From the IMG/VR virus record IMGVR_UViG_3300028277_000003, positions 1,436 through 65,435 of that record: a stretch of 64,000 nt of DNA, one strand, 5' to 3'. This DNA comes from a virus (lineage: Duplodnaviria; Caudoviricetes). Shown here in pieces: positions 3 to 16,535 of the stretch. The translations under genes and the position numbers were made by a program. The notes below the pieces were generated by a model, which ran no database searches, was not told the origin of the DNA, and worked only from the letters and a program-made list of their open reading frames with translations. Position 1 is the first letter of the stretch. Each line of letters starts with the position of its first letter.

Positions 3-116
3 GCGAGATATTTAGATGAGGCTATCCCGTTAGACTTTCAAGGAAACGAAATCCGTTATACACAAGGTAGTCGCATACCAGATAATTTTCGTAATGAATG
101 GGGGTTTAACGAATGA
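3..116 (+). CDS. 3' end of a hypothetical protein (partial, enters from the left edge)
   Basis: Frame 3 is open from base 3 (ARYLDEAIPLDFQGNEIRYTQG...WGFNE*); its TGA overlaps the next ATG (ATGA at 113-116), the coupling pattern used throughout the window. Confidence 0.6.
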   Translation, partial: ARYLDEAIPLDFQGNEIRYTQGSRIPDNFRNEWGFNE

Positions 117-628
117 ACCCCTTCGACAAAGCGTGGCTTTTGCTCAAAGCGCCAATTGTGCCCGGTACGATGCATCAAACCGGGAAAAATGAGTATACCG
201 CTTTGTTTCAAGACCCACAAACTAATGAGATTCTTCCAGTGTATGGTTCTAAGCAATCTTATCCGGTGGCGATTGATGAGCATAATCCTGTGGGTGGAAA
301 TATTGATTCTTACAAAGCACAAATTTTAGAGGCCGGTGGCGAAAAATATGAGCGGGGCGGAAAACTATCGTATGATGATGACCCACGGCGGGCTATGACC
401 AGCATTTCTTCGGCGGATTTTACTAAGCCTGAAGTTGTACCACAGTGGACTCAGACGAGGGGTGAGCATAAAAATAAAGGATATATGCAGTCACTTTATG
501 ATTTTGCGGCGGTTATGGCGGCGAAGGATAAAAATCGAATTGTGCCGTCTGTTAGTCAGACTGAGGCGGTTAAGAATGCGTGGAAAGGTCGGGATGAATG
601 GCCGATACCTGACAATCTAGAGTTTTAA
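113..628 (+). CDS. Tagged protein with C-terminal GNAT acetyltransferase-like domain
   Basis: Starts MNPFDKAWLLLK; C-terminal TQTRGEHKNKGYMQSLYD...IVPSVSQTEAVKNAWK resembles GNAT motif A (xR/KxxGxxxxLY) and the following SQT..W segment. Confidence 0.6.
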   Translation: MNPFDKAWLLLKAPIVPGTMHQTGKNEYTALFQDPQTNEILPVYGSKQSYPVAIDEHNPVGGNIDSYKAQILEAGGEKYERGGKLSYDDDPRRAMTSISSADFTKPEVVPQWTQTRGEHKNKGYMQSLYDFAAVMAAKDKNRIVPSVSQTEAVKNAWKGRDEWPIPDNLEF

Positions 629-679
629 ATGGGAGGATACGCAATGAACCCCTTCGACAAAGCGTGGCTTTTGCTCAAA
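113..679 (+). repeat. Identical 36-bp direct repeat at two gene starts (113-148 and 644-679) encoding MNPFDKAWLLLK
   Basis: atgaaccccttcgacaaagcgtggcttttgctcaaa is present at both positions; the sequences diverge completely afterwards. Confidence 0.95.
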
Positions 680-1120
680 CAAGATACGCGTCAAAGTACG
701 TTAGGTGAGTATCATCCTGATTTTCCTTCTCCATATGGCGATGTGAAGTATTACCATGGGACAACAGTAGAGCCAGCGTCGAGAATTAACTTTGAAGGGT
801 TGAAGCCGACGGAACCTTCCACGCTAGGGTTGAATCAGATGCTAGAAAGATATGGAAGAGAAAAACTAAGTGAAATGTTTCCTAAAGGTGTATATGCAAC
901 CGATAATAAAGATGTAGCAGCCGATTATGCCTACACGAGAGGGCAAAATAGGAATCAACAGGGTCGAATATTTGGAATAAGGGAAGGGGCACCCCAACAA
1001 GCAAATCCTTCAACGAGGCCGCTCGCGCCCGATAACGTATTTCGATATGACGAAAAAATACCGAGACAGTATCTTACTCCGGTAGATTACCCAATTTTAG
1101 GTACGGAGATGAGTGAATGA
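644..1120 (+). CDS. Tagged ADP-ribosyltransferase-fold protein with PIP-box-like motif
   Basis: Start moved from 629 to 644 (GGAGG at 632-636; identical tag). Motifs YYHGT, INFEGLKP, GVYAT, AADYA and IPRQYL are typical of H-Y-type ART/Tpt1-KptA folds; QSTLGEY follows the tag. Confidence 0.7.
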   Translation: MNPFDKAWLLLKQDTRQSTLGEYHPDFPSPYGDVKYYHGTTVEPASRINFEGLKPTEPSTLGLNQMLERYGREKLSEMFPKGVYATDNKDVAADYAYTRGQNRNQQGRIFGIREGAPQQANPSTRPLAPDNVFRYDEKIPRQYLTPVDYPILGTEMSE

Positions 1121-1965
1121 GTGACTTTTCCATTTACGAAGTTGGTCCACGCGACGGTCTACAGAGCGCCGACACAATAACATCAACATATGACAAAGTA
1201 ACCCTGATACGAAAAATTGCTAAGGCCGGTATCAAAAATATTGAAGTTGGCTCAATGGTCAATCCTGACAGAGTTCCTAACATGGCCGATAGCGATGTGG
1301 TTTTTCTCAAAGTTCAAGATTTAGCGCCTGAGCACAATCTCGGTGTCTTAGTGCCTAATCGCAGGGGAGTTGAGAGAGGGAAGGCTGTAGGTGTGGAAAA
1401 GTTCAATATTTTTTTCTCGCCCTCTAATTACTTCAATATCAATAACTTCGGAAAGAGCCTAAATACGATTTTTGCTGAATATTGTGGTGCATTAGACGGA
1501 ATCCGACCCGAAAACGTTAGAGTATACCTTTCTACAGCCTTTGGATGTCCTATGATTGGTGAAATACCACAAGAAGACATGCTAAAAACCATGGAATGGG
1601 CTAATACGCTAGGTGATACTATCGTTTTGTCTGATACAATTGGCAATGCTAATCCGTCCTTAATTCGTAAAGTGATGCGTTTAACGGACAGAAAAATAGA
1701 TGCTAAGATAGCACTACATCTACATCATGGATTTAGAGAGGGTAGAATGTATGATAACTTGTCTGCTGGCTTTGATTGCGGGATTACTCAGTTCGATTCA
1801 AGCATTGGTGGGATGGGTGGATGTCCGTTTGTACCGGGTTCAGGGGGCAATTTAGCCACAGAACAATTAGTACATTGGGCTAGTAAAGAGAATCTTGATT
1901 GTGGTGTTACGACTAAAGACTTAGAACCGCTTATGAAGTTTGTAAATACTAGGCTAAAAGTATAG
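1117..1965 (+). CDS. hmgL: Hydroxymethylglutaryl-CoA lyase (DRE-TIM metallolyase), auxiliary metabolic gene
   Basis: EVGPRDGLQ, VRVYLSTAFGCP, LSDTIG, metal-binding HLH and FDSSIGGMGGCPFVPGSGGNLATE signature with catalytic Cys; full length (282 aa). Confidence 0.92.
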   Translation: MSDFSIYEVGPRDGLQSADTITSTYDKVTLIRKIAKAGIKNIEVGSMVNPDRVPNMADSDVVFLKVQDLAPEHNLGVLVPNRRGVERGKAVGVEKFNIFFSPSNYFNINNFGKSLNTIFAEYCGALDGIRPENVRVYLSTAFGCPMIGEIPQEDMLKTMEWANTLGDTIVLSDTIGNANPSLIRKVMRLTDRKIDAKIALHLHHGFREGRMYDNLSAGFDCGITQFDSSIGGMGGCPFVPGSGGNLATEQLVHWASKENLDCGVTTKDLEPLMKFVNTRLKV

Positions 1966-2018
1966 TAGCGACCACTATTGTCAAACAAACACCAATGATA
2001 ACATGTTGAATTATTTCT

Positions 2019-2048
2019 GCTATTCTAATTCTTAGATAGCCTTTTATT
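2019..2048 (+). terminator. Possible terminator between convergent genes
   Basis: gctat(t)ctaa-ttc-ttagatagc stem followed by cttttatt, lying between the stops of the lyase (+) and the 2059-2850 gene (-). Confidence 0.35.
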
Positions 2049-2058
2049 GCCATAGCAA

Positions 2059-2850
2059 TCATGTTACGGCGACCTGCCCGCCAGTTCCTGTACTGGCTTT
2101 TGCTCGACCTGCTGATGACAAATCTTCAATTCTTTTCATTTCGGCTTGTTGTTTGGCTTGATTATTTGCCATAGTTTGAGATGCCATCTGTTGTGCACCT
2201 GAAACCACACCGACAGTCCCCGCCTGCAATGCTTGTTTCTCCCCAGCGCTCAATGCTTCTGCTTTTGAACCATCAACGAGTTGTGTTTCGGTTGTGCTAG
2301 TATTGGTTAACCCCATACTACCATCACTATTCTTGTGTTGCCCCACCGCTTCATCTAAAGCCCTTCTTTTTGCTCCGGCTATTTGCTGTCCACTTGGATT
2401 CTGTGATATGGTTTCAGGAAGGCTACCTCCGCCTTGAAAATCATTTAAGGTTGGCTGTGGTGGTATAGAAGAGGCTTGGGGTTGCAAATCTTTTACTTGT
2501 TGCGAGTTTTCTAAGTAACTATCCCAATCTTTAGCACCTTCAGGTAGATTCAAACCTTCAGGTATATTTTTATATCCTCTTACTTTTACAGGATTTTGTT
2601 TCATGCCTGTATACCCTTTGCCTCTAAGAGCGTTCAAAGTATTACCTTTAGGAACTTGAGTTATTTTTCCCGCAGTCCTTGCATTTTTAACAGCAGCAAA
2701 TCTTTTGGCCGCCGCGCTAAGTAATTTATTTCCACCCGCTCTACCCGCTTGTGTTACTAATGCACCTGTTAATAACGGTAACGCTTGTACGAACTTTTCC
2801 ATGTTGTCTTTACCTTTCACCACTAAAACAGAAGGTGTGGCGGCTCCCAT
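2059..2850 (-). CDS. Ala/Gly/Gln-rich hypothetical protein, possible internal virion/ejection protein
   Basis: Only credible minus-strand gene; ATG at 2850 is preceded by AGGTGGGAG (RBS); N-terminus SVLVVKGKDNMEK-FVQALPLLTGAL, C-terminal helical Q/A-rich region. Confidence 0.7.
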   Translation of the reverse strand: MGAATPSVLVVKGKDNMEKFVQALPLLTGALVTQAGRAGGNKLLSAAAKRFAAVKNARTAGKITQVPKGNTLNALRGKGYTGMKQNPVKVRGYKNIPEGLNLPEGAKDWDSYLENSQQVKDLQPQASSIPPQPTLNDFQGGGSLPETISQNPSGQQIAGAKRRALDEAVGQHKNSDGSMGLTNTSTTETQLVDGSKAEALSAGEKQALQAGTVGVVSGAQQMASQTMANNQAKQQAEMKRIEDLSSAGRAKASTGTGGQVAVT

Positions 2851-3010
2851 ACTCCCACCTGTATTGCGGTGATGATGAGTGGTATGGAAAGAAGAAGTTG
2901 CAACAACTTGAACCTGCGGAAAGGGAACCACCACGAATACAGCACGAAGCGTAACATATTAGAAGTATCGCACTAGTAGAGAAGGTGTTAGCAGTACGGC
3001 GGAGAGCAAA

Positions 3011-3274
3011 ATGAAACCAATAGATGCAGCAATAAAACTTCTAAAATCTACCCCTTCTGCTCAAGTCGCTATGCAACACGATATGCCTTCTTACATGGAA
3101 GAAGCACTAAATCAAAGCGGTAAAACTCGTTCTGATAGCCGAAAAAAGAAAGACAAGGCATCAAAACTACGTCAAAAAATAGACGACCACGAAGAAGATT
3201 CTCAAATAATTGATTTTTACAGACAGAATCATCCTGAGTGGTTTGATTCATTTAGAAGTGGCGAAGGTGAGTAA
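3011..3274 (+). CDS. Small tagged hypothetical protein
   Basis: GGAGAG RBS; begins MKPIDAAIKLLK-S, a tag variant. Confidence 0.75.
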   Translation: MKPIDAAIKLLKSTPSAQVAMQHDMPSYMEEALNQSGKTRSDSRKKKDKASKLRQKIDDHEEDSQIIDFYRQNHPEWFDSFRSGEGE

Positions 3275-3854
3275 ATTGGATAAAAAACCAAAGAAAGGCG
3301 TTGCAGTAGTTATCAGCATTGGCCCAAAAATGAAAACTAAGCCCACCGATGCCGCTACTCCCGAAATGCCAATAAAGAAGTATGGTTCAATGCCGATGAA
3401 AAAGGCATGGAGCATTCTAAAAAATGAAGATTACCCTCCTATGAGTACTCGCTCAACACCAAGAAGTAGCCCTTATCGTTTTATGAATGAAAATCGTATT
3501 CATAGAGAAGGGGCGCAAAATCACGCTAGAGAAGATGACATAAACGATTCAGAATACGAAGATATGGAAGATATGGAACCGCCATATGGTAAACCTGAGT
3601 TTGGTAATGAAGGTGCACGTGAAGCAGAAATGAATCAAGCAGAACGTGCTGCAATAATGGCAGAAGGTATGCCTGAAATGCAAAGGCCACGTAGTGCACC
3701 TAGACCGGGTGACCCTAGATTTAGAGGCTCTAGAAGAAGTGATGCACCTCCCAATTCAGAAGGGTATCCTCCATTCTTTAATTCAGATGTTGAAGATTCT
3801 GCTCATAATCAACCAAGACCTAGTATGCCAAGAGACGTTTTTGCAAACAGGTGA
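3267..3854 (+). CDS. Low-complexity tagged hypothetical protein
   Basis: In the 3210-3854 ORF; GTG at 3267 overlaps the previous gene end; internal PMKKAWSILK tag; P/R/E/M-rich, probably disordered. Confidence 0.7.
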   Translation: MSKLDKKPKKGVAVVISIGPKMKTKPTDAATPEMPIKKYGSMPMKKAWSILKNEDYPPMSTRSTPRSSPYRFMNENRIHREGAQNHAREDDINDSEYEDMEDMEPPYGKPEFGNEGAREAEMNQAERAAIMAEGMPEMQRPRSAPRPGDPRFRGSRRSDAPPNSEGYPPFFNSDVEDSAHNQPRPSMPRDVFANR

Positions 3855-4300
3855 TTGGGTTGACTGCATTCAATGAGGCTTGGCAATTTCTCAAAACCGA
3901 GCCAATTGATATGCATCAAGGCTCAGATGGAACTTGGCGTGCACCTCAGGAAGATATAACACCAGAAAAAAAATTGTGGCAACAAATCCAAGCAAGAAAC
4001 GCACAGGCTAGGCAAAACTTGAGTGAAGACGTTTCCCACGCTCCAACTCAGGAAGAATTAGAAGCACACCCTGATTTTGGTAAAACGTGGTTTCCTAATT
4101 ACATTCCTAAAGATTACACAGGTAACACGATGGTTAACTCAGAAACAGGCAATTACGACCCGAATGACCCTAAAGGTTGGCATCCTATGGGGGAACCGGA
4201 GTTACCTGAAGGCATGACTATGGGAAACTATTTGGAGAGACAAAGTGAGCAGAATCCTGAACATCGGCGGTTAGGCCAAAGTGATAACCTTAGGAGATGA
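3851..4300 (+). CDS. Tagged hypothetical protein
   Basis: GTGA overlap with the previous stop; AFNEAWQFLK tag near the N-terminus. Confidence 0.75.
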   Translation: MIGLTAFNEAWQFLKTEPIDMHQGSDGTWRAPQEDITPEKKLWQQIQARNAQARQNLSEDVSHAPTQEELEAHPDFGKTWFPNYIPKDYTGNTMVNSETGNYDPNDPKGWHPMGEPELPEGMTMGNYLERQSEQNPEHRRLGQSDNLRR

Positions 4301-4375
4301 TGCGATGTGGACTCGGTAACACTTGGTTTGGTCCTAAACCTACATCACAACCGGGGTATTCAGGATGGATGTAAA

Positions 4376-6670
4376 ATGGTATTCAATAAATCTTGGAACT
4401 ATTTGAAAAGTGATTGGTCGTCTACTGATAGTTTATATGGTAATGAGTATGAAGATGAACCTAGTATAGAAAGAAAAAGACATACAGTAGATAATAATTA
4501 TCAAACCACGATACCACAATTTGACCCAAGATTAGATGAAACAACTGGTTGGCAGGGTGTAGAACCTGTTACGGCTATTCGTGTACAAGGAAATCATCGA
4601 AAGGCAGGTCAAGCCGTACCACAAGATGGTTCTAATAAAAACTTTGAAGGAGGTGACCCAAGACTTCCACAAAGGATTCCCGAAATACCCCATGATGATG
4701 ACCCTGTTTGGGATGACCCCGACTCACGATGGAGTAAAGACCCCAAATCGGGTTCAAGATATTATATGTCCGGTAAATATGAAGATGGTAAGTATAACCC
4801 TCGCAGTAAAAAACATTTTGCTGATTTGAAAAATGCAAAGGCTGGAACTTGGGCTGCAAAAAATACTGTCGGAGATATTCGTAATTTATTCACTCATAAC
4901 AACCACGAAAAGTTAGTTTACATTCGTGGAAATCTTGATAAATATGGTAAAGTACACAGAAGAGATAGTGATGAAGCGCAAGAAGATTTAGCAGAAGCGT
5001 TTATCGAACACGACAAAGATATTCCACGCGAAAGCCTTGTTGAAGTACCATTACGCGACCATTATTTACATCAAACGAGAGAGATGGGCACTCCTGACCT
5101 TGGTCCTAATAGACGTTCTAGTGAAAAAGGACGAATTAGTAGGTGGAATGACAAACCAGTACCTTGGGGTGAATCAAGGGAACCAACTAAAAAAATAGAA
5201 GATATGAATGATGATGAGTTTCAAGAATTTCAAGAATCATTATACGATAAAACCCCTGAAGAAATCCATGAGTTAACAAAAGGAAGTCCAATGGACATAG
5301 CCTTCCAGTTGCTCAAGGGAAAGACAAGGCAATCTACTCTTTGGGGTTACGACCCAAAAATGGTAGAGAACTTACTCGCAGAAGATAACAGTAATATTTT
5401 CATCGCCGCTAAACCCGGAAACGATGATATGCCCGATGATGAACAAAATGAGCGTTCGGATAAAATGCTACAAGACCTCGCCGCACTCAAAGAGAAACAT
5501 GGTCACTTCGATATAACCAGTGCCACAGGTAGAGCGCAGTGGGACGCAGAACCATCTTTCATGCTCACTAACGTGCCTGATAGTGCAAGGGATTCCATTA
5601 ATGAGATAGCGGTAAGATACGGTCAGGAATCCATGGGAATCTCGGAAAAGGGGGAGAAAGGGGTGAACTACGTTACACCGGAGGGGGAGGTAAAGGACAA
5701 GTTCAGTAGTATGGAGATGCAGGAAAAACCGGAGTACTCTACAGATTTTCCGAGTAGTCAGAGGCTGGCTTTTACGGGTTGGCAGGAAGCAAATAAGGCT
5801 AATCCAATGCACATAGCCTTCCAGTTGCTTAAGGGTTGGGCAGGTGGTGTTAGAGGTATAGGTAATAATGCCACGGACAACATTTATCATTATCCACACG
5901 AATTAGATTACGGCTCGATAGACGAATATATGGGTGAGAATCCTGATGCTACTCTCGGTAGTATGGTAACGCCGTATCTACAAGGACAGTTTACAAATAA
6001 TCCTCCTACAAATCCGCCAGCCTATCAAAGTGAAAGACCTACTCAATTACAAAGCACAGTTCCGGCACCTTTTCCACAAACCCCTGAACAAACAAAAGGC
6101 GTTCAGAATCTTATTAATGAGGGATTCGATGACTACGAGTCTAGGGACAGCGTAAGAAAACCTCATTATGACAGCATGAATAATGCAGTCAGAGTATTAT
6201 CTAGAAATTTAAGAGGAAACCCTGCATACAATTTTACGCCACCGGGAAGATTGCGAGGTACTAAGGGACAGGGCGGTAGAAGTAGGCAAATGCAGAATAT
6301 GAAACTACGAAGTATGTTAGATACCCCTGTATCTCAAAGCATGGCAGAGATGAACATACCGAAACAAGGAATATCAATTGCGGCAGGTGAACCAATGGAC
6401 ATAGCCTTCCAGTTGCTCAAAGAGCGCAAGTCACCAGCAGCATTTGCTCACAAGTTAGAGTATGACAAGCAATATCAAAAGACACCTAAGCGCGTAAAGT
6501 ACCGTGAGCAATTAAACGCAGAGCGTAGGAAGCGTGGCATATACGGTAAGGGTGGTGCGGATGTTAGCCACACACAAGGTGGTAAACTCACTCTTGAAAG
6601 CGCACATGCTAATAGAGCAAGACATTTCAAAAACAAAGGCACTCTCCGCAGGGTCAAGGTGAAAAAATGA
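4376..6670 (+). CDS. Four-module tagged polyprotein (ART-like?, SAM-lyase/DUF3293-like, unknown, HNH-like)
   Basis: Likely start ATG 4376 (MVFNKSWNYLK tag); three internal PM[DH]IAFQLLK repeats delimit unrelated modules. Confidence 0.75.
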   Translation: MVFNKSWNYLKSDWSSTDSLYGNEYEDEPSIERKRHTVDNNYQTTIPQFDPRLDETTGWQGVEPVTAIRVQGNHRKAGQAVPQDGSNKNFEGGDPRLPQRIPEIPHDDDPVWDDPDSRWSKDPKSGSRYYMSGKYEDGKYNPRSKKHFADLKNAKAGTWAAKNTVGDIRNLFTHNNHEKLVYIRGNLDKYGKVHRRDSDEAQEDLAEAFIEHDKDIPRESLVEVPLRDHYLHQTREMGTPDLGPNRRSSEKGRISRWNDKPVPWGESREPTKKIEDMNDDEFQEFQESLYDKTPEEIHELTKGSPMDIAFQLLKGKTRQSTLWGYDPKMVENLLAEDNSNIFIAAKPGNDDMPDDEQNERSDKMLQDLAALKEKHGHFDITSATGRAQWDAEPSFMLTNVPDSARDSINEIAVRYGQESMGISEKGEKGVNYVTPEGEVKDKFSSMEMQEKPEYSTDFPSSQRLAFTGWQEANKANPMHIAFQLLKGWAGGVRGIGNNATDNIYHYPHELDYGSIDEYMGENPDATLGSMVTPYLQGQFTNNPPTNPPAYQSERPTQLQSTVPAPFPQTPEQTKGVQNLINEGFDDYESRDSVRKPHYDSMNNAVRVLSRNLRGNPAYNFTPPGRLRGTKGQGGRSRQMQNMKLRSMLDTPVSQSMAEMNIPKQGISIAAGEPMDIAFQLLKERKSPAAFAHKLEYDKQYQKTPKRVKYREQLNAERRKRGIYGKGGADVSHTQGGKLTLESAHANRARHFKNKGTLRRVKVKK

Positions 6671-7023
6671 GTAATTATCCGTCATACCCAACGACACCTC
6701 CTAAAAAATGTGAATATTGTAATGGTGCTGGAATTATTGACCCTTATGGTGATGAAGAGGATGTGGCTCAGGCTGACCCAAGATATCCACATGAAACATG
6801 TTGGAAGTGCAAAGGAACAGGTATACAGACAGAATGGTCATTTAACCCATATATGCCTTCTTTCCACCCCCCTTCTTTCCACCCCCCTTCTTACCACGCC
6901 CCTCCCCCGTCCAAAATGGAATTAGGAGAGCCAACAATTAATTTTGACCCTGAATGGCAAGAAATGAATAAAAGTTCTAGTGTTGCATTTTCATTAGCGT
7001 GGAACTTACTTAAATCAGAATAA
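6667..7023 (+). CDS. DnaJ-type zinc-finger protein with C-terminal tag
   Basis: CEYCNGAG and CWKCKGTG (two CxxCxGxG motifs), SFHPP tandem repeat, ends AFSLAWNLLKSE. Confidence 0.75.
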   Translation: MSNYPSYPTTPPKKCEYCNGAGIIDPYGDEEDVAQADPRYPHETCWKCKGTGIQTEWSFNPYMPSFHPPSFHPPSYHAPPPSKMELGEPTINFDPEWQEMNKSSSVAFSLAWNLLKSE

Positions 7024-7024
7024 A

Positions 7025-7108
7025 CTGTCCGATAATTCCGATTGTACGTCTATACAAATATACATAATATTACTTGTATATAGACAATACATTAGATTAT
7101 TCGGACAG
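7025..7108. repeat. Long imperfect intergenic inverted repeat (about 84 nt)
   Basis: ctgtccgataat pairs with attat(t)cggacag; inner tgta-c-gtcta-tacaa pairs with ttgta-ta-tagac-aa-taca; AT-rich loop. Confidence 0.75.
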
Positions 7109-7155
7109 CCAACCCTTAAGATGACCCCCACTGTGGGCTAACACGAGGTCACAGC

Positions 7156-7815
7156 ATGAGCAGAGATGTAGGGGATACAAACGAAATGAAAATGACAGGG
7201 TTGATTTTATCTCAATCGGCCTTAGTTGGATTAGCAATAGGAGTATATAGTTCGGGTTTATGGATGCCCGCAGGTTCAAGTGCAAGTTCAACAATAGATG
7301 GTATGACTTATGCGATGGGTGCGCTTGCAGTTCAAACAATAGCATATTATTTGTTTAAGATGTTCTTTGAACAGTCTATGAAAGAGAAAGTGGAAGTTGC
7401 AGAATTACAAAGAAACAGGCAGAATATGTATAGACAGCAGCAAATGGGCTTTGACCAACGTAGAGTAGATTTAGAATTAAGGCAAATGGAATTACAATTA
7501 GAAAATGAATTACGTATGATGCACGAAGACCCTAATAGAGTATTAGATAATAATCAATTTTTTAATGGTGGTGCCGTTAGTGCTGGCGTTAAAGGAGACT
7601 ATCATAATACCTTCAACCCCGGACTCGTACCTGCGCATGGTGCAAAAAATGAGGCACCTATGAATCTTGGACTTTCTAGTACACAGCAAGCAGTTGATTC
7701 ATTGAATCAATCAAATATACCATCGCGTACTTTACCTATACCACCAAGAGATGGACAACCATCAAACCAGCGAATGAAAAAAGATGGTACACCGGATTTA
7801 AGATATAGAACCTAG
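7156..7815 (+). CDS. Membrane protein (2 TM helices) with coiled coil
   Basis: Hydrophobic segments LILSQSALVGLAIGVYSSGLW and MTYAMGALAVQTIAYYLFKMFF, followed by a Q/E/R/L-rich helix; GAGGT RBS. Confidence 0.8.
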   Translation: MSRDVGDTNEMKMTGLILSQSALVGLAIGVYSSGLWMPAGSSASSTIDGMTYAMGALAVQTIAYYLFKMFFEQSMKEKVEVAELQRNRQNMYRQQQMGFDQRRVDLELRQMELQLENELRMMHEDPNRVLDNNQFFNGGAVSAGVKGDYHNTFNPGLVPAHGAKNEAPMNLGLSSTQQAVDSLNQSNIPSRTLPIPPRDGQPSNQRMKKDGTPDLRYRT

Positions 7816-7829
7816 TGTGGTAGGACAAG

Positions 7830-8117
7830 ATGGTGCTACCCGGACAACTAATTCCTTCTCCTTTGCGTATATTTCGCAATGTTGGTGATGACTCGGTAGA
7901 AGAAACTCTTCGAGCAATGCATTTAGCAAACACCGTCGATAATACATATGAATGGGGCATTGGTTGGATTAGAACCGTACTCGTATCTTTTATCGCTGTT
8001 ATGTGTGTATCTGCTATGGAAGCAAATTCAGATTGGAATCTTTGGGAATTAACAGTTGAATGGTGGTATCAAAAAGCAGCAGACTTTGGTTCTTGGCTTA
8101 CTAATAAGTTTAGTTGA
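7830..8117 (+). CDS. Small membrane protein
   Basis: TM segment WGIGWIRTVLVSFIAVMCVSAM and a Trp-rich amphipathic C-terminus. Confidence 0.75.
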   Translation: MVLPGQLIPSPLRIFRNVGDDSVEETLRAMHLANTVDNTYEWGIGWIRTVLVSFIAVMCVSAMEANSDWNLWELTVEWWYQKAADFGSWLTNKFS

Positions 8118-8123
8118 TGCTTT

Positions 8124-8840
8124 ATGGTTGCTGCTAGTGGTAGTGTATTAGTGGGCGTGGCCTTGTATGGTAAACAGGCATATAATAATTGGAAATCACG
8201 AAGAGTAGGGATTTATGGCGCAACTATGGTCGGTAAGACGACTTTAGATAAATACATGACCACTCCGGGCGAAATGGAAGAAATACCCGAACATGAAAGA
8301 ACTACACATTTCAAATTAGTCACTCGTTATATATTACCCAAACCCACTCGTAAAAGAGTTCGTTGGGAAGGTGAGAGAAGGGTTATTCATTCTGCTGACA
8401 TAGGTGGTGAAGAGCGTTTTTGGAATCTTTGGATTGATGATATGGTAAATAGACAATGTGAGTACGTTATATTCATGTTTGACGATAGAGCGTTTCGAGG
8501 AGGGGATGAGGCTTTACAGCAAATAGGAGGATTCAGATTCTTAGTAGACAGTATAATAAACAGAAATTATAGGTATAGAAATTGGAAGAGTTGGAGAAGA
8601 GGTAAGAAATACGTACCTAAGATGATATTACTAGTTGCAAATAAAGCAGATAGGTATTTTGATGAAAAGGCAGCACAGTTGTGGAGAGAGGGTAGAATTG
8701 GAGAACATAAGATTTTTGACCCTTTTAGAGAAGACCTAATTAGATTACAAAAAGCAGGCGTACCAACACGTCGTTCGTTCATGGCTACGCGTATAGGTTG
8801 GAACGTAGAAAACACATTATTAGAGATGATAGATTACTGA
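8124..8840 (+). CDS. Ras-superfamily (Arf/Rab-like) small GTPase with N-terminal hydrophobic anchor
   Basis: G1 GATMVGKTT, G2 candidate ERTT, G3 DIGGEERFWNLW, YVIFMFD, G4 LLVANKAD, G5-like MATRIGWNVE. Confidence 0.85.
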   Translation: MVAASGSVLVGVALYGKQAYNNWKSRRVGIYGATMVGKTTLDKYMTTPGEMEEIPEHERTTHFKLVTRYILPKPTRKRVRWEGERRVIHSADIGGEERFWNLWIDDMVNRQCEYVIFMFDDRAFRGGDEALQQIGGFRFLVDSIINRNYRYRNWKSWRRGKKYVPKMILLVANKADRYFDEKAAQLWREGRIGEHKIFDPFREDLIRLQKAGVPTRRSFMATRIGWNVENTLLEMIDY

Positions 8841-8854
8841 CCTCAAAAGTGACC

Positions 8855-8862
8855 TTTTTAAT
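8855..8862 (+). promoter_or_regulatory. Candidate archaeal TATA box for a (near-)leaderless transcript
   Basis: TTTTTAAT about 25 nt upstream of ATG 8884 in a short intergenic gap, preceded by purine-rich CAAAAG (BRE-like). Confidence 0.45.
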
Positions 8863-8883
8863 GTGGTAGGGTGTGGGAGTAAC

Positions 8884-9063
8884 ATGGGGAAGGGGACGAC
8901 GACTACTGCATTAGTTTCCACAGGAGGCTCTAGTAATTCACTTAGAACTACTATTCCTATGTGGATTGTAGAGCAGTTTGGTCTATCTGCTGGCTCTAAA
9001 ATAGAATGGACTTTAGAAGTTAAAAATGGGGAAATGTCTATTTCAGTATGCCCACAGGAATGA
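8884..9063 (+). CDS. AbrB/MazE/SpoVT-type DNA-binding protein
   Basis: SLRTTIPMWIVEQFGLSAGSKIEW matches the swapped-hairpin consensus; ATG 8884 preferred over GTG 8863. Confidence 0.8.
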   Translation: MGKGTTTTALVSTGGSSNSLRTTIPMWIVEQFGLSAGSKIEWTLEVKNGEMSISVCPQE

Positions 9064-10037
9064 TACATATGGTAATGGGAATGAATCCTTTCTATAATCC
9101 ACAACAACAAAATCTTGGTCAAGTAAATGACGCTACATTAATGGCGTTGTCACAACAAGGAAATCCAAATTTTTCACACGCTGCTCTAATGGAACAAGCG
9201 TCTGCACAACAACAAATGCAAAGAATGGCAGCAGAAAAAAATATAGAAGTTCCTAAAGTAAACTTCTATCCTTCCCGTCACGCTAATCCATACAAAGCAA
9301 GAAAACTAGATATTCGTCAAGCGTACAAACTTTTGGCTCCTACAAAACGTGCTTTTTTTGACCCTAGAAGATTATTTCGCCATAGTAAATATATGTATAA
9401 TAAAGATACTGCTGTATGTTGTGTAGATGGTTGTAATGTGAAACAATTAATACAACATGATAATTTATATTCTAGAATAACTGATGAAGAGAGCGGTAGA
9501 ACACTTTGGGATATGTATTGGCAGAATCCAGTTACCGGAGAGTCTGAAGCGTTTATTGCTAGAGAGGGAGTAACTAGTGGTCGTAAAATGAGGGCTACCT
9601 ATTGTCCTGAGCATTTACATTTGTATCATTTGTTATGTAGGTGGGAAGACCAACAAGATATTGAAGATGAAATGAAACCTAGTCGTTTCCGTGATAAAAT
9701 AAAAAGAGGAGTTAGTATAGTTACGGTACCGATATCTACTGTTACTGGTGGGCAACAGGGACCAACACACCCTATGATTACAAAATACGAAGGCTTCTTT
9801 GCAGAAATATCAGCAGATGCTAGAGGTAGTAATGGTATTAGTATGCAACATTATACTAATCCGGTTACTGGAGATAATGATATAACAACTATAACATTTG
9901 ACATGAGAATGTTCCAAAAAGAATTAATGGAAATGAATCAAACAAATCCAGCATTTCAGGATGTTCTAAACCAACAGGCTCAAGTCCTTAACCCTGCTCC
10001 GACGATACCGGAAGCAGTAATGGAGGGTATGCAATGA
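9060..10037 (+). CDS. Hypothetical protein, Q-rich N-terminus, putative Zn site
   Basis: Long ORF with ATGA coupling at 9060 (start could be 9069); CCVDGC ... YCPEH ligand pattern. Confidence 0.75.
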   Translation: MIHMVMGMNPFYNPQQQNLGQVNDATLMALSQQGNPNFSHAALMEQASAQQQMQRMAAEKNIEVPKVNFYPSRHANPYKARKLDIRQAYKLLAPTKRAFFDPRRLFRHSKYMYNKDTAVCCVDGCNVKQLIQHDNLYSRITDEESGRTLWDMYWQNPVTGESEAFIAREGVTSGRKMRATYCPEHLHLYHLLCRWEDQQDIEDEMKPSRFRDKIKRGVSIVTVPISTVTGGQQGPTHPMITKYEGFFAEISADARGSNGISMQHYTNPVTGDNDITTITFDMRMFQKELMEMNQTNPAFQDVLNQQAQVLNPAPTIPEAVMEGMQ

Positions 10038-10678
10038 CTATGGGATGGAACAATCAACAGCCAACTACTAATGCGTTAAATCTTAGTCAAACAGGTGCAC
10101 CTATGGGTGGGTATAACGGCGGCTACTCAGCCCCACAACAAGGTTGGTATCAAACTCCACAACAACCCGGAATGTTAAATTCTATGTTTGCTGGTGCAAC
10201 TGGTCAAGACCCGTATAATCAACAAGCCATACTACCACCAAGTGAGACTGAGATTTTAATGACCATGTTAAACACTTCTTATCCAGTAGAAAGATTTCTT
10301 CAATCCCCAATCTTTCCTATGCTTTTAGAAGTTATTAGTCAGATTAATACATTTTCATTACTAAATGTAATTAAAAATGCTAGTTATAATTTTGATGAAG
10401 AGGCTGGTGTTTTTACATTAGATACTGCTAGTTTACCAACTGAACTACAAACTATGAGTTCAGAAAATATAATGTCACAAATGAACTCTATGACTAATAT
10501 GATTAATCAAACAGTTTCAAATGCAGATACACAGAGACAGCAAACAATGCAAAATGCACAACAGAGTATGCTACAAAATCAATTGTCTAATGCTCTGATG
10601 GACCCCGGTATATTAAATAATGCAGCACAAGGTACTGGTACTTTCTTCCGTAGTTTCTTAACAGGTGGAAGAGCATAA
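10034..10678 (+). CDS. Q/N/M/G-rich hypothetical protein
   Basis: GGAGG RBS, ATGA overlap, 214 aa; low-complexity ends around a helical core. Confidence 0.75.
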   Translation: MTMGWNNQQPTTNALNLSQTGAPMGGYNGGYSAPQQGWYQTPQQPGMLNSMFAGATGQDPYNQQAILPPSETEILMTMLNTSYPVERFLQSPIFPMLLEVISQINTFSLLNVIKNASYNFDEEAGVFTLDTASLPTELQTMSSENIMSQMNSMTNMINQTVSNADTQRQQTMQNAQQSMLQNQLSNALMDPGILNNAAQGTGTFFRSFLTGGRA

Positions 10679-10947
10679 TGTTAGGTGGCAATGCCTCTAG
10701 TAATTTTGGTGTACCAGTACCAAGACAAATAGCAGATATGTCAATGCATATGCTTGCGCCAAAAAGAGAAGTAATTGTAGATATGGTAATGGTACAATTA
10801 ATTAGTGCTATACTTATATTCATGGGGATTTTAATATTCAAAAATGGCGATATTAACCAAGGAGAAATGTCTATGTATTTGGTAGGAGTCTTTTTGTCCT
10901 TTATTCTCTTGACATCTATATATCAGCGAATAACGCGGTTTGTGTAA
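10678..10947 (+). CDS. Small 2-TM membrane protein
   Basis: Hydrophobic MVMVQLISAILIFMGILIF and MYLVGVFLSFILLTSIY; TAATG overlap with the previous gene. Confidence 0.75.
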   Translation: MLGGNASSNFGVPVPRQIADMSMHMLAPKREVIVDMVMVQLISAILIFMGILIFKNGDINQGEMSMYLVGVFLSFILLTSIYQRITRFV

Positions 10948-10955
10948 GCAATAGT

Positions 10956-10963
10956 GATTAAGC
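10956..10963 (+). promoter_or_regulatory. Candidate TATA box
   Basis: GATTAAGC about 25 nt upstream of ATG 10984, which sits in the same AACATG context as 8884. Confidence 0.35.
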
Positions 10964-10983
10964 ACACCTTACTCCGCATTAAC

Positions 10984-11667
10984 ATGGTTGAGCGAGAGCC
11001 AGTTATGAAACGTTCCTGTGCATTCTGTCAAAACGATGACAGAGTGGGTTTGGAAGAGGCCATTAAAAATGGTGAATTATCTTGTGCTCAATTAGATAAA
11101 GATATGAGTTGGAGGTCTAATACTGCCGACCGTCATTATCGTAATCACATGGGTCAATACCATATGGCTGCAAATCCATCTTGTTCTATTTGTTCAAGTG
11201 AAAATAGAGCAGATTATGAAAACAGATTCTTTACCGATGGTACTGAATCAGAATTAATAGCAGAAGAATTAGAAATTAAGGAGACTACAGTATATCATCA
11301 TATGAAGCATCACTTTCAACCGTTAGTTCAACGCTCGGCAGCGACAGAAGTTGCAATTACAGTCGGAAATGAAATTACAGTATTACGAAGTAATGTCGAA
11401 AAACTCAACGGAAAACTTTCAGAATTAATGGATGAAGGGAGCGTACATGAAGAAGGGTTTGTGAGAAATGCAGTAACTTTACATAAAGAAGTAAGAGAAT
11501 CAATAAAAGATTTAACCGGCTTCCAAGATAAATGGGGTACACAAATAGACGGTACTCAGGTAAATCAAACAATCAATATACTAAAAATAGAATTAGCAAA
11601 AGAAAGTCCTGAAAGTTGGAAAAGAATCAAAAGTAAGTTACAGGCAGAAATGGAGGAAGTTATATGA
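10984..11667 (+). CDS. Duplicated CxxC/HxxxH zinc-HTH protein with coiled coil; candidate terminase small subunit
   Basis: CAFC...RHYRNH and CSIC...HHMKHH repeats, each enclosing an HTH-like segment; then a coiled coil and the NQTINIL beta-tail. Confidence 0.5.
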   Translation: MVEREPVMKRSCAFCQNDDRVGLEEAIKNGELSCAQLDKDMSWRSNTADRHYRNHMGQYHMAANPSCSICSSENRADYENRFFTDGTESELIAEELEIKETTVYHHMKHHFQPLVQRSAATEVAITVGNEITVLRSNVEKLNGKLSELMDEGSVHEEGFVRNAVTLHKEVRESIKDLTGFQDKWGTQIDGTQVNQTINILKIELAKESPESWKRIKSKLQAEMEEVI

Positions 11668-12068
11668 TACCTGTGTCAGACTTAATGCAAGTCCAACATC
11701 CGGGTTATCGTACTTTTATACAATCTAATAATATGTCTGCTATACATTATCCTTTATTTTTTGATTATTGTATATGTGTGTCAGAAAGATTTAGACATTA
11801 TGCATATCAAGAGGCTAATGTACTAATTAATGAAAATAGTCTAATGCACATAATAGATTGTATAAAGCAATTAGACGATACAGATGAGCCTGAAATAGTA
11901 TTACCGTTAAGAGAACAAATAAGACATTCATGTTACGAGTTCTTAGAACATTGTAATGATATGTCTACTAAATTCAAAAGCCCAACCAGTATTTCTTTAT
12001 TCTACAATGAGTTAGGACAACTCGTGATGCAAACTGCTTTTGAATTTGCGGGGGTACAACATGACTAA
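11664..12068 (+). CDS. Hypothetical protein
   Basis: GGAGG RBS, ATGA overlap, 134 aa. Confidence 0.7.
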   Translation: MIPVSDLMQVQHPGYRTFIQSNNMSAIHYPLFFDYCICVSERFRHYAYQEANVLINENSLMHIIDCIKQLDDTDEPEIVLPLREQIRHSCYEFLEHCNDMSTKFKSPTSISLFYNELGQLVMQTAFEFAGVQHD

Positions 12069-13461
12069 GCCAGTTAAGATTTTGAAGTCAGGTATGACAA
12101 GTACTGGTAGCGATACTCGTATGTATGGACCGAGAGGCGAATCCTCTCACATGTTCCGTAGTAATCATGAAGATGAAGGGGATGTTTACGGAGCAGAAGG
12201 TGGTGAATATCGTGATGCGAGAATTGACCGCAAAAAGAAAGAGCGTAAAGAAAGAGAATCTGAAATGAATAAGTTAAGACATATTTCAGTAACTACAGCA
12301 GATTTACCTCCTGAAGACGAGGAAGAAAAAGATGAAGACTTAGAACCAACAAAATTCGATAATGAACTTGAGCCTTCTTTAATGACCGGTACTCCGGGTA
12401 ATTTCGGTGCTATGACTAGTATGGCTAATCAGGCTAGAGGACCGGGTTTTGCCGGTGGGCATAATTTTGCTATGGGAGAACCAATGGACATAGCCTTCCA
12501 GTTATTGAAAGGCGGGAGAGCCGGTTTTATAGGTAAAAAACCAAAGAGGGAAAAGGGTGCCAAAGCAAGAAGAGCGCATAAAGAAAGGCAGAAGAAATGG
12601 CGGCCTTCGACTGGAGAGTTCAAGAGACCTCCGGGTGGTATGACACCTGCTAGTGCTACATCTAGAAGAGCAAAGGCAAGAATGCGAGGTATTGCTGGTA
12701 GCAAGAAAACAGGGTTAGGTAGAGCACATCTTGCTGTCGAGATGTCTCACAGAGGTGTAAAAACTAAACAGCCTATGTCAAAAGATGTAAAGAGATATAG
12801 ACAATACCTAGGTCAGTCCGAAGCAAGAAAGCGTTTAGGTAACATACGAACTGTATCTTCTACACCTTCTAGATTTGGTGCACGTTCATACAAAGCGGGG
12901 TTAACTGGCGGTGGTACACTACAAAGTCTACTCCCCGGACAAGCCCAACAAATGAGAAGACCATCACTTAGGTCAATTAGACCTCCACCATTAATGCCAC
13001 CTACTGCACCAAACAGACCTACTTTACCTTCACCTTCCATACCGAGTCCTCCTGTAATGTCCCAACCAAGAATGGGAGTTGGGGTACAAAGTATGGCCGG
13101 CCAAAGTCCAAGTTACAGACCTAAGTTACCTAGTTCTTCGATACAAGGTGCACCTGTAATGACTGGTGAGATTGGAGAAGGTAGTGAACTACAAAAAAGG
13201 GGACTATCATACTACGACACCACAGAATTAAGACAATTACTCCTTGATGCTAAAAGAGCCTTGAACCGTAAAGAGAATAAGAAAAAAGGTAAAGGGGAGA
13301 AAAGCGTAGATGCTGCTAGTCATTTACCTGCCCATACAGAAGCAGGCCCGAAACAGACCACAAGACCTGAAGGCGCTACAGAAGATGCAAATAATGAGCC
13401 TCGCACATTTGGTATTAATCCTTTAGACCATCTTACAAGTAGAGGCGGTAGAACACCTTGA
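12061..13461 (+). CDS. Tagged low-complexity protein with acidic, basic and Pro-rich segments; probable internal head protein
   Basis: ATG 12061 after GGGGT; contains a PMDIAFQLLK copy separating an acidic N-terminal part from an R/K-rich part. Confidence 0.75.
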   Translation: MTKPVKILKSGMTSTGSDTRMYGPRGESSHMFRSNHEDEGDVYGAEGGEYRDARIDRKKKERKERESEMNKLRHISVTTADLPPEDEEEKDEDLEPTKFDNELEPSLMTGTPGNFGAMTSMANQARGPGFAGGHNFAMGEPMDIAFQLLKGGRAGFIGKKPKREKGAKARRAHKERQKKWRPSTGEFKRPPGGMTPASATSRRAKARMRGIAGSKKTGLGRAHLAVEMSHRGVKTKQPMSKDVKRYRQYLGQSEARKRLGNIRTVSSTPSRFGARSYKAGLTGGGTLQSLLPGQAQQMRRPSLRSIRPPPLMPPTAPNRPTLPSPSIPSPPVMSQPRMGVGVQSMAGQSPSYRPKLPSSSIQGAPVMTGEIGEGSELQKRGLSYYDTTELRQLLLDAKRALNRKENKKKGKGEKSVDAASHLPAHTEAGPKQTTRPEGATEDANNEPRTFGINPLDHLTSRGGRTP

Positions 13462-15872: not shown

Positions 15873-16535
15873 ATGGGTAAGGTCTATGTTTTAAGAAAAG
15901 ACGCCGATGCTAATCAATCGTCAGCCTTTATGATGGGCGGCGGCCAATCGGGAGGCGGTTTAGGAAACGTCATGTATAATCTACCAAATTGGGTTACACC
16001 TGAGGAAGCGGTTTATGGAACGTATGACAAACAGGGCAACGTCACATCGCCCGGAGCATTACCCACGGATGGTACTGCCACTCGCGAACAAGGTAAACAT
16101 GCAGAGAAATGGGCTAGAGGATTAGGCAGAGCGGGTCTATATGCTGGTGCTGGGTTAGGCGGTCTTAGCGCATTTTACAATTTGAGTTCTAGCGGTCAAC
16201 CGCTTGACTTTAGTGGGATGGCAAATATAGGTACTGCTGCTTATACTGGGGGACGGACTGCACAACCGTATTCTACCACTTTAGGAGCACGAATCGGGGT
16301 AAGAAGAGGAAGAGGAACGGGTACACCTGAGAATAATACTACTGTGCCTACAATCGCCTCTCCAAAACAATTACCTCCTCCTCGGACAATAGATGCTGAG
16401 TTTACAGAAGAAGAAGCGATGTCGCCTACTAATTCTGCAATGGATTCTTTACGAGAGGAGAGTAGAAAACAAAATTGGTTTAATAATAATGATAATTATC
16501 ATCCAATGAATGCTTTACGACAGGAGTATCCATGA
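15873..16535 (+). CDS. Gly-rich protein with glycine-zipper hydrophobic segment
   Basis: GGAGGTG RBS; MGKVYVLRK-D start; GLGRAGLYAGAGLGGLSAFY. Confidence 0.75.
   Translation: MGKVYVLRKDADANQSSAFMMGGGQSGGGLGNVMYNLPNWVTPEEAVYGTYDKQGNVTSPGALPTDGTATREQGKHAEKWARGLGRAGLYAGAGLGGLSAFYNLSSSGQPLDFSGMANIGTAAYTGGRTAQPYSTTLGARIGVRRGRGTGTPENNTTVPTIASPKQLPPPRTIDAEFTEEEAMSPTNSAMDSLREESRKQNWFNNNDNYHPMNALRQEYP

Follow-up and report, generated by a model that had tools for sequence, protein, structure and literature searches.

Some viruses and protein compartments are known to direct unrelated cargo proteins by means of short shared peptides, among them the capsid targeting sequence (CTS) of phage T4. The T4 internal proteins IPI-III and the Alt ADP-ribosyltransferase carry N-terminal propeptides of 10-19 residues, which target these otherwise unrelated, fast-changing proteins to the prohead core and are removed by the prohead protease gp21 (PMC9026906). 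The front part of the peptide serves targeting and the back part serves processing, at [LI]-x-E sites with the cut after Glu, and the same protease also processes itself and the capsid protein. In giant bacterial phages such as phiKZ and SPN3US, proteomic work has shown that many head-internal and ejection proteins with propeptides are cut by a prohead protease, some of them at several sites, although the descriptions consulted report only a short motif ending in Glu and not a longer shared leader. In HK97, the gp4 protease removes the N-terminal delta domain of gp5, a scaffolding domain of 103 residues, inside the prohead (PMC10275583). The HK97 cut follows Lys103. HK97 is not known to possess a set of tagged cargo proteins. 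On the other hand, Family 1 encapsulins bring unrelated cargo into an HK97-fold shell by a short C- or N-terminal targeting peptide, which binds the shell protein directly, is not reported there to be cleaved, and has a consensus containing G-S-L-K near its end (PMC8346489).

Here we describe a 12-residue amphipathic helix, ending mostly in Leu-Leu-Lys, that an uncultured ocean virus places in front of, between or behind many unrelated small proteins. We found no published description of it. The virus is represented by a 65-kb record, IMGVR_UViG_3300028277_000003, of which one stretch of 64,000 nucleotides (the window; positions 1,436 to 65,435) was analysed. The record is a magrovirus, a tailed virus of Poseidoniales archaea. 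Its major capsid protein (MCP) is 31-34% identical to the MCPs of haloviruses HVTV-1 and HCTV, the figure given for magroviruses by Philosof et al. (2017), and an MCP of 65% identity lies on a 106-kb contig of a Poseidoniales single-cell genome. A sequence-only reading of the window had pointed out 11 copies of a motif on unrelated proteins and had interpreted it as an archaeal-virus equivalent of the T4 signal, which loads host-takeover or anti-defence proteins into the procapsid, is clipped off at maturation and lets the cargo be injected with the DNA.

The observation itself stands up to re-examination. A six-frame regular-expression scan of the window gave 12 hits, of which 11 are on the + strand, in real open reading frames (ORFs) between nt 107 and 12,522, at every position previously listed, and one is a spurious hit on the - strand. 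A half-tag DNA pattern (A-[W/F]-x-x-L-K) gave 9 matches, all on the + strand at 131-12,510, whereas shuffled sequences gave 1.88 +/- 1.46; none of 100 shuffles reached 9, the largest value being 8. Two more N-terminal copies lie upstream of the window, at nt 104 and 808 of the record, which therefore holds 13. A position-specific scoring matrix (PSSM) built from these 13 scores them 24-36, and the next best hit in the record scores 14.0. One correction concerns the gene at about 3860, whose probable TTG start gives a canonical tag. The 12 cargo segments of this record are indeed unrelated to each other, the lowest pairwise BLAST E-value being 0.054. The features are collected in the table below.

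Table. Tag copies and candidate processing sites in the window (all on the + strand).
Position	Feature	Observations
113..148	N-terminal tag of a 171-aa protein (113-628); cargo GNAT-like by weak fold match	AF2 model with pLDDT 83.6; tag forms helix 3-11. Foldseek top hits mostly GNAT acetyltransferases, E 5.5e-3 to 0.1. R-x-R-G-Y-A motif conserved in 11 relatives
644..679	N-terminal tag of a 158-aa protein (644-1120); cargo ADP-ribosyltransferase (ART)-like by weak fold match	The 52 nt at 628-679 are 88% identical to 97-148, identity ending at the Lys codon. AF2 model with pLDDT 70; tag forms helix 3-14, followed by a low-confidence linker 12-21. Foldseek top hits KptA/Tpt1, Arr, PARP and other ART folds, E 1.7e-3 to 0.1
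3011..3046	N-terminal tag (variant with Ile in place of Phe and Trp) of an 87-aa protein (3011-3274)	PSSM score 24.3
3387..3422	N-terminal tag of a roughly 154-aa acidic protein (ATG 3390-3854)	PSSM score 28.0
3860..3895	N-terminal tag of a roughly 146-aa protein; probable start TTG 3860 (ORF ends at 4300)	PSSM score 27.5; codon 3860 is TTG
4373..4408	N-terminal tag (ATG 4376) of a 764-aa polyprotein-like ORF (4376-6670)	PSSM score 24.8
5282..5317	Internal tag 1 of the polyprotein-like ORF (internal type, [GS]-E-P-M-D-I-A-[FW]-x-L-L-K)	PSSM score 32.0
5798..5833	Internal tag 2 of the polyprotein-like ORF	PSSM score 31.6
6386..6421	Internal tag 3 of the polyprotein-like ORF, preceding an 82-aa basic module that is a stand-alone tagged gene in other viruses	PSSM score 33.1; phrog_6437, E 6.8e-19, on the module; stand-alone forms in L144 and L170 (L, loci of relatives)
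6979..7014	C-terminal tag of a 118-aa Cys-rich protein (6667-7023); only two residues follow the Lys	PSSM score 25.3; weak DnaJ_CXXCXGXG Pfam hit, E 0.001, below the cut-off
12475..12510	Internal tag in a 473-aa protein (12040-13461), between an acidic N-terminal part and a 316-aa basic part (20% Lys+Arg)	PSSM score 33.1
28008..28022	Candidate self-processing site 1 of the protease-scaffold protein (27966-29327): I-S-I-L-K ending at K19, directly before the S78 core	Pfam Peptidase_S78, E 4.3e-9, residues 22-173. Leader variable, but [IL]-x-[ILV]-[LIV]-K kept; K19 kept in at least 90% of 33 sequences
28467..28481	Candidate processing site 2: F-S-I-L-K ending at K172, at the end of the S78 domain and before a variable acidic linker and the scaffold-like part	F168, I170, K172 and D174 invariant in 33 sequences; last-5 PSSM score 10.2, reached by 0.08% of 5-mers in long ORFs
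29444..29458	Candidate maturation site in the MCP (29357-30526): S-E-L-L-K ending at K34, followed by Ala	Pfam SU10_MCP, E 1.8e-11. [ED]-[LI]-L-K-[AS]-D present in all 35 distinct N-termini from 102 MCP ORFs

The tag is specific and was found almost only on magrovirus-type contigs. Over 2.35 Mb of related DNA, 438 PSSM hits reach 16 or more, against 0 in reversed-protein controls. In the Poseidoniales single-cell genome, the 106-kb viral contig has 17 coding-strand hits of 15 or more, while four other contigs, 264,664 bp in all, have 1. A refined DNA pattern found only 12 stretches in 596 Gb of cellular genomes, of which one is that viral contig and six are one Glaciecola gene, and a looser pattern hit at least 116 stretches of IMG/VR. 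The tagged genes lie co-oriented just upstream of the terminase-portal-protease-MCP block in this virus, and there or right after the MCP in relatives. In a complete relative (G001), no hit of 15 or more lies between 3.7 and 81 kb, a stretch that holds the DNA polymerase. On the other hand, the related halovirus HVTV-1 shows no shared N-terminal tag in the 33 CDS inspected.

Relatives yield 386 distinct copies (237 N-terminal, 85 internal, 12 C-terminal and 52 ambiguous), attached to about 180-206 unrelated cargo families; 361 cargos fall into 180 BLAST clusters, 120 of them singletons. Two position-specific forms can be distinguished, which read M-x-[AP]-F-[DN]-x-A-W-x-hydrophobic-L-K at N-termini and [GS]-E-P-M-D-[IL]-A-[WF]-x-L-L-K inside long ORFs. 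Among the 237 N-terminal copies, Ala is kept in 226, Trp in 227 and Lys in 231, although most loci used for the census were fetched with a DNA pattern for the N-terminal form, which inflates the conservation seen at the fixed positions of the pattern. The tag marks module boundaries as well, because the same cargo occurs with an N-terminal tag as a separate gene in one virus and with an internal tag inside a longer ORF in another. Examples are L140 versus L150, the basic 80-aa module, and the ART-like family in L208, and in all, 17 of 68 multi-member clusters mix both forms.

The residues around the end of the tag resemble the context of a cleavage site. After the Lys, Pro occurs in 0 of 233 cases and Ala in 57 of 233, and Pro occupies the next position in 50 of 233, although the distinct sequences are related by descent, so that p-values at these P1' and P2' positions overstate independence. 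Met follows the Lys in 42 of 233 cases (background 2.9%), as if the tag had been placed in front of complete genes. AF2 models place the tag as a separate helix followed by a low-confidence linker. The genome encodes an S78 prohead protease in its head module, and the ending hydrophobic-x-[IL]-L-K recurs at two conserved boundaries of this protease, next to variable flanks, and near the MCP N-terminus. However, this likeness covers only the last 3-5 residues. Full 12-residue PSSM scores of the protease and MCP sites are -1.5 to 2.2, and a 5-mer scoring 8 or more occurs at 0.15% of positions in long ORFs, so that about 0.6 is expected by chance in a 400-aa protein. The first 34 MCP residues are as conserved as the rest of the protein and partly alignable by eye to HVTV-1; the MCP site is therefore weak evidence on its own, and cleavage at K34 is not established.

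We consider the most likely reading, with a probability of about 0.6, to be a portable address label combined with a protease cut site. In this view, the front part (F-D-x-A-W) would dock a cargo protein onto a component of the assembling procapsid, possibly the scaffold, the inner face of the capsid protein or a small adaptor, whereas the back part would be recognized by the HK97-type S78 prohead protease of the virus, which would cut after the Lys. Cutting would free N-terminally tagged cargo, split multi-tag polyproteins into modules, and process the protease itself and possibly the capsid protein, and the freed cargo would stay in the head and enter the host with the DNA. In the 12 distinct copies where the tag is C-terminal, cutting would release nothing, so at least these must act by binding alone. 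What our analysis demonstrates is that the tag exists, is selected as protein, is virus-specific, is fused to well over a hundred unrelated families and marks module boundaries, whereas loading into the head, cleavage at the tag Lys and injection of the cargo are inferred from sequence alone, magroviruses being uncultured and without proteomic, structural or genetic data. The earlier interpretation is thus supported in part: the archaeal host, the portability and virus specificity of the tag, the recurrence of its ending in the protease and MCP, and the parallel with T4 all hold, while host takeover and anti-defence remain inference only.

The parallel with the T4 CTS is apt as an analogy, not as homology. 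In both cases, a short peptide, mostly N-terminal, is shared by otherwise unrelated proteins of one virus, with an ADP-ribosyltransferase among the T4 cargos and an ART-like protein, by weak fold match, among those of this virus. No sequence likeness exists, however; the present tag ends in L-K, presumably cut after Lys, and the protease matches Pfam S78. Tags also occur internally, in polyprotein-like ORFs, and at C-termini, and tagged genes are many more per genome, with 13 copies in this 65-kb record and 17 on the viral contig of the single-cell genome. The protease family is that of HK97, but the scaffold is fused to the protease rather than to the MCP. As for encapsulin targeting peptides, only the L-K of the G-S-L-K stretch is shared, a protease-like cut-site signature is present in our tag, and the shell is the MCP of a tailed virus with terminase, portal and tail genes. 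No N-terminal MuF or other known trafficking domain, as in MuF-type or polymorphic-toxin head-packaged effectors, was found, since no Pfam family was assigned to any tagged protein of the window.

Two alternatives appear unlikely, although neither is excluded. The tag might be a processing signal only, which marks where the viral protease or a host protease cuts precursors and polyproteins so as to activate or separate modules in the cytoplasm, while capsid loading does not occur or depends on other features. The multi-tag ORFs, fusion and fission at tags, the absence of Pro after the Lys, the ending shared with the protease's own boundaries, and the acidic pro-part that precedes the basic part of the 473-aa protein fit this view. 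But twelve residues are conserved, far more than the 3-5 shared with the protease and MCP sites, so the front part must do something besides being cut, and C-terminal tags would be pointless as cut sites. Moreover, as in HK97 and T4, prohead proteases of this family are generally co-assembled into procapsids and act there, and the protease of this virus is fused to a scaffold-like part with a conserved C-terminal motif. Equally unlikely in our judgement, the tag might be a docking helix for a partner other than the capsid, such as a viral or host hub protein, a chaperone, a membrane, or a replication or assembly factory, with the final Lys kept for binding. Its short amphipathic helix and its occurrence at N-terminal, internal and C-terminal positions, like the terminal targeting peptides of encapsulin cargo (PMC8346489), agree with such a role, and the evidence for capsid location is only indirect. 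Yet residue identities are kept strictly, partly owing to the search pattern, and this reading leaves unexplained the exclusion of Pro after the Lys, the match to protease boundaries and the placement beside the head genes.

That the repeat is a DNA or RNA element, such as a translation-initiation region, a promoter or a recombination handle, with the peptide as a by-product, is close to refuted. It is true that some copies are nearly identical as DNA: those at 113 and 644 also share their upstream 16 nt, and the four internal-type copies are 84-89% identical to their reference copy over 37 nt. N-terminal copies follow a G-rich Shine-Dalgarno-like stretch, and tags may well help cassette exchange as a side effect. 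However, synonymous codon variation occurs at every conserved residue, both within this record and across relatives, for example Ala GCG/GCA/GCT/GCC and five different Leu codons, and Gly and Ser alternate at one position through unrelated codons. DNA identity between copies ends exactly at the Lys codon, the reading frame and strand are always the coding ones, and internal copies sit in open frames hundreds of codons from any start. The conservation is therefore in the protein.

With regard to the cargos, the sequence-only reading had proposed GNAT-, ART-, SAM-lyase-, HNH- and Zn-finger-like families. Pfam supports none of these labels; the Zn-finger-like label has one sub-threshold Pfam hit, and SAM-lyase and HNH have no support. 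Among 20 cargo-cluster representatives, only 1 has a Pfam hit over the cut-off, DUF6321. The GNAT-like and ART-like labels receive weak fold support. For the GNAT-like cargo, the model is good, but Foldseek E-values are 5.5e-3 or worse with TM about 0.4, and the Atlas lead scores 0.91. For the ART-like cargo, the model is moderate and all top Foldseek hits are ART folds, but none has E <= 0.001 and TM is about 0.4; the Atlas lead is PARP/Arr, and His38 and Tyr84, without a third assigned catalytic residue, are invariant in 15 relatives.

The features of the window are collected in the table below. An archaeal host is well supported, since the major capsid protein (MCP) is 31-34% identical to those of haloviruses HVTV-1 and HCTV, the relationship reported for magroviruses by Philosof et al. 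2017, and an MCP 65% identical to that of the window lies on a 106-kb contig (G006:C2, loci L227-L232) of a Poseidoniales single-cell genome. This magrovirus-like contig carries 17 tagged ORFs and provides a direct virus-host link for the group. Furthermore, IMG/VR holds at least 599 stretches encoding close relatives of the MCP, which are 77-99% identical among the 80 kept.

Features of the window (nt 1436-65435 of the 65,435-nt IMG/VR record) and the support for each
Position (nt)	Feature	Observation
97-148 and 628-679	Start regions of two neighbouring tagged genes	52 nt shared at 88% identity, covering the ribosome-binding region plus the tag, then complete divergence
113-628	171-aa tagged protein	GNAT-like by weak fold match
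644-1120	158-aa tagged protein	ADP-ribosyltransferase-like by weak fold match
1117-1965	Untagged HMGL-like gene	Pfam PF00682, E 1.8e-26; inside the array of tagged genes, an unusual metabolic gene for this position
12040-13461	473-aa protein	Acidic part, then the tag, then a 316-aa part with 20% Lys+Arg
16532-18013	Large terminase	T4-type
18082-19224	LAGLIDADG-like ORF	Weak Pfam hit, E 0.006; between the terminase and portal genes
19226-20971	Portal	
21390-21746	118-aa protein	Between portal and protease; C-terminal motif shared with the protease-scaffold protein
22299-27920	1873-aa ORF	Between portal and protease
27966-29327	S78 prohead protease	Fused to a long scaffold-like C-terminal part
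29357-30526	MCP	SU10-type, HK97-fold
34573-37050	825-aa protein	Segment of about 70 aa present twice
40662-57503	5613-aa ORF	One of the tail genes, in the tail region, no stop over 16.8 kb; the same segment of about 70 aa once more, at about 55,000-55,400

The observation made in the sequence-only reading, that one short peptide recurs on a set of unrelated proteins, is confirmed, and every copy listed there is present. Of 12 hits to a regular expression, 11 are on the coding strand between nt 107 and 12,522, and two more N-terminal copies lie just upstream of the window in the same record. A half-tag DNA pattern gave 9 matches against 1.88 +/- 1.46 in shuffled sequence, with 0 of 100 shuffles reaching 9, and a position-specific scoring matrix (PSSM) built from the 13 copies separates them (24-36) from everything else in the record (14.0 or less). 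Conserved residues are written with many synonymous codons and DNA identity between copies stops at the Lys codon, so that the unit of selection is a peptide. It exists in two forms, an N-terminal one, M-x-[AP]-F-[DN]-x-A-W-x-hydrophobic-L-K, and an internal one, [GS]-E-P-M-D-[IL]-A-[WF]-x-L-L-K. We considered whether the internal G-E-P-M is only a read-through ribosome-binding site, a translated Shine-Dalgarno sequence plus start codon, but this was rejected because, among 62 internal copies, all four Pro codons are used, Gly and Ser alternate through unrelated codons, and the spacing to the ATG is too short.

The tag is widespread among relatives. Four magrovirus records (this one and three relatives) carry 13, 9, 8 and 4 hits of 16 or more, all on the coding strand. 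A DNA pattern for the N-terminal form hit at least 116 IMG/VR stretches, against a rough estimate of about 14 chance hits; of 115 loci examined, 68 carry several PSSM hits, 44 carry one and 3 carry none, and about 8-10 look like chance matches inside unrelated long ORFs. Over 2.35 Mb, 438 hits reach 16 or more against 0 in reversed-protein controls, and 386 of these are distinct, comprising 237 N-terminal, 85 internal, 12 C-terminal and 52 ambiguous copies. Most of these loci were retrieved with the pattern itself, which fixes F, D/N, A, W, L and K, although the internal form and the unfixed positions are independent of that choice. The tag appears to be specific as well. A refined pattern found only 12 stretches in 596 Gb of cellular genomes, of which six belong to one Glaciecola gene and one is the viral contig of the Poseidoniales single-cell genome. 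That contig has 17 coding-strand hits of 15 or more, nearly all at ORF starts, whereas four other contigs of the same cell, 264,664 bp in all, have one weak hit. In G001, a complete relative, no hit of 15 or more lies between 3.7 and 81 kb, the stretch that holds the DNA polymerase. An equal frequency of the tag on replication or host proteins, which had been set beforehand as grounds for refuting the proposal, was therefore not found as far as could be checked. On the other hand, no shared N-terminal tag was seen among the 33 CDS read in a 41-kb stretch of halovirus HVTV-1.

The 12 cargo segments of this record share no similarity, the lowest pairwise E-value being 0.054. Across relatives, 361 cargos fall into 180 clusters, 120 of them singletons, and form 206 clusters when split at tags. 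Pfam and PHROGs are nearly silent on these proteins: searches with the tagged proteins of the window gave no informative family except phrog_6437, of unknown function, and a Pfam search with 20 cargo-cluster representatives gave 1 hit over the cut-off, DUF6321. The 171-aa protein gives a confident model whose Foldseek neighbours are mostly GNAT acetyltransferases, and it keeps an R-x-R-G-Y-A stretch; a word-index homologue search found only the protein itself, and its relatives came instead from clustering of the retrieved loci. The 158-aa protein gives a moderate model whose neighbours are all ADP-ribosyltransferase-superfamily folds. No Foldseek match in either search reaches E 0.001, so these are leads rather than assignments. 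In both models the tag is a separate N-terminal helix, followed in the second by a low-confidence linker. A short TRQSTL stretch follows the tags at 644 and 5282, but the likeness is 11 residues long with E 0.39, and in the 644 family the stretch belongs to the conserved domain.

Several features suggest that the tag marks a module boundary and a candidate cut site. The same cargo appears as a stand-alone gene with the N-terminal form in one virus and as a later segment of a multi-tag ORF with the internal form in another. Examples among the loci are L140 versus L150; the 80-aa basic module, which is the last segment of the window's 764-aa ORF but stand-alone in loci L144 and L170; and the ADP-ribosyltransferase-like family, which is internal in locus L208. 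In all, 17 of 68 multi-member clusters mix both forms, although some internal assignments only reflect long open upstream frames. The residue after the Lys is never Pro (0 of 233), but is Ala in 57 and Met in 42 of 233, and the next residue is Pro in 50 of 233; these sequences are related by descent, so the p-values are not independent tests. The frequent Met suggests that the tag was placed in front of complete genes. The 52 nt shared by the two neighbouring genes at the start of the window are consistent with recent tag-mediated recombination or gene conversion.

A possible link to the prohead protease comes from its own sequence. In 65 distinct protease homologues the N-terminal leader is variable, yet [IL]-x-[ILV]-[LIV]-K is kept immediately before the conserved S78 core, and A-T-F-[SR]-I-L-K-[EQ]-D is kept at the end of the S78 domain, before a variable acidic linker. 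In a 33-sequence alignment K19 is kept in at least 90% of sequences, and F168, I170, K172 and D174 are invariant. The MCP has [ED]-[LI]-L-K-[AS]-D at residues 31-36 in all 35 distinct N-termini, including the 61%-identical MCP of the single-cell contig. This is the weakest link in the argument, because only the last 3-5 residues are shared, full-tag PSSM scores of these sites are -1.5 to 2.2, and comparable 5-mers occur at about 0.15% of positions. Position and conservation support the two protease sites, whereas the whole MCP N-terminus is conserved, so that conservation of the site there is uninformative; MCP cleavage rests on nothing beyond analogy. A complex prediction with the protease-scaffold protein (alignment of 33) and the first 42 residues of tagged proteins (alignment of 61) scored 0.00 against a mark of 0.32, which says nothing either way.

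A second shared short motif, M-S-W-[DES]-[DE]-[IV]-H, lies about 15-20 residues from the C-terminus of exactly two proteins per genome in four genomes, the protease-scaffold protein and the 118-aa protein. It may be the capsid-binding tail of scaffold-like proteins, and the 118-aa protein could be a second scaffold or an adaptor. The reading of the tag as a copy of this C-terminal motif was rejected, since neither C-terminal tail is among the best tag-PSSM windows of its protein in this genome, where the best windows score only 4.0 and 3.2, and only a loose W-x-x-hydrophobic-basic likeness is visible by eye.

Taken together, the analysis establishes a portable, protein-level, virus-specific tag on very many unrelated families, at module boundaries and beside the head genes, whereas its mode of action is inferred. 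In the mechanism we propose, the front of the helix would dock cargo to a procapsid component, and the S78 protease, co-assembling through its scaffold part, would cut after the Lys, so that cargo is freed inside the head and leaves with the DNA. The 12 distinct C-terminal tags fit binding but not release, and the two functions are therefore separable, as reported for T4, where targeting and processing map to different residues of the capsid targeting sequence (CTS). The sequence-only interpretation, in which the tag loads cargo into the procapsid, is clipped off at maturation and lets the cargo be injected, is thus only partly supported; it is plausible, internally consistent and testable, but there is no direct evidence for loading, cutting or injection, and we put the probability of the combined capsid-loading and cut-site reading at about 0.6.

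The closest functional analogue is the T4 CTS with its protease gp21. The logic proposed here is the same, including an ADP-ribosyltransferase among the cargo (here ADP-ribosyltransferase-like by weak fold match), but there is no sequence relationship, the presumed site chemistry, the protease family and the host domain differ, and the polyprotein and C-terminal arrangements have no counterpart in the T4 literature consulted. Encapsulin targeting peptides also load HK97-fold shells, and their published consensus contains G-S-L-K near its end, although they are not described as cleaved. Giant-phage head maturation shares the many-substrate protease logic. Full-text literature searches and term look-ups in magrovirus papers found no description of this tag, although gene tables in supplementary files could hold annotations outside their reach.

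Magroviruses are among the most abundant viruses of the surface ocean, and their hosts are uncultured (Philosof et al. 2017). Most of their genes have no known function. If the tag marks virion cargo, one rule would assign a cellular location and a time of action to 10-18 genes per genome and to well over a hundred orphan families. It would also show that tag-directed capsid loading, known from T4-like phages, arose independently in archaeal viruses with a different protease family and a different cut-site chemistry, and would provide a short natural peptide for loading foreign proteins into an HK97-fold shell. A more far-reaching possibility, which we regard as tentative, is that magroviruses run a modular cargo code, in which one 12-residue helix acts as loading label and protease cut site and, because it is also a conserved 36-nt cassette boundary, serves as the recombination handle through which hundreds of effector families are swapped, fused and split among viruses. 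The virus head would then be a programmable protein-delivery vehicle for an abundant ocean archaeon, carrying enzymes such as ADP-ribosyltransferase-like and acetyltransferase-like proteins into the host ahead of gene expression.

The 1873-aa ORF occupies the position that HVTV-1 gives to very large head-module ORFs. Its last 384 residues contain a K-D-G-T-R stretch and give sub-threshold Pfam hits to the ATP-dependent DNA ligase adenylation domain (E 0.007) and the Snurportin cap-binding domain, and in G001 the homologous ORF has a tag-like site (PSSM 20.9) 383 residues from its end. The repeated segment in the 825-aa protein and the 5613-aa ORF, T-D-A-T-C-x-Y-N ... T-N-G-T-L-T-F-D-P, was seen by eye in the translations and may be a shared fibre or Ig-like domain.
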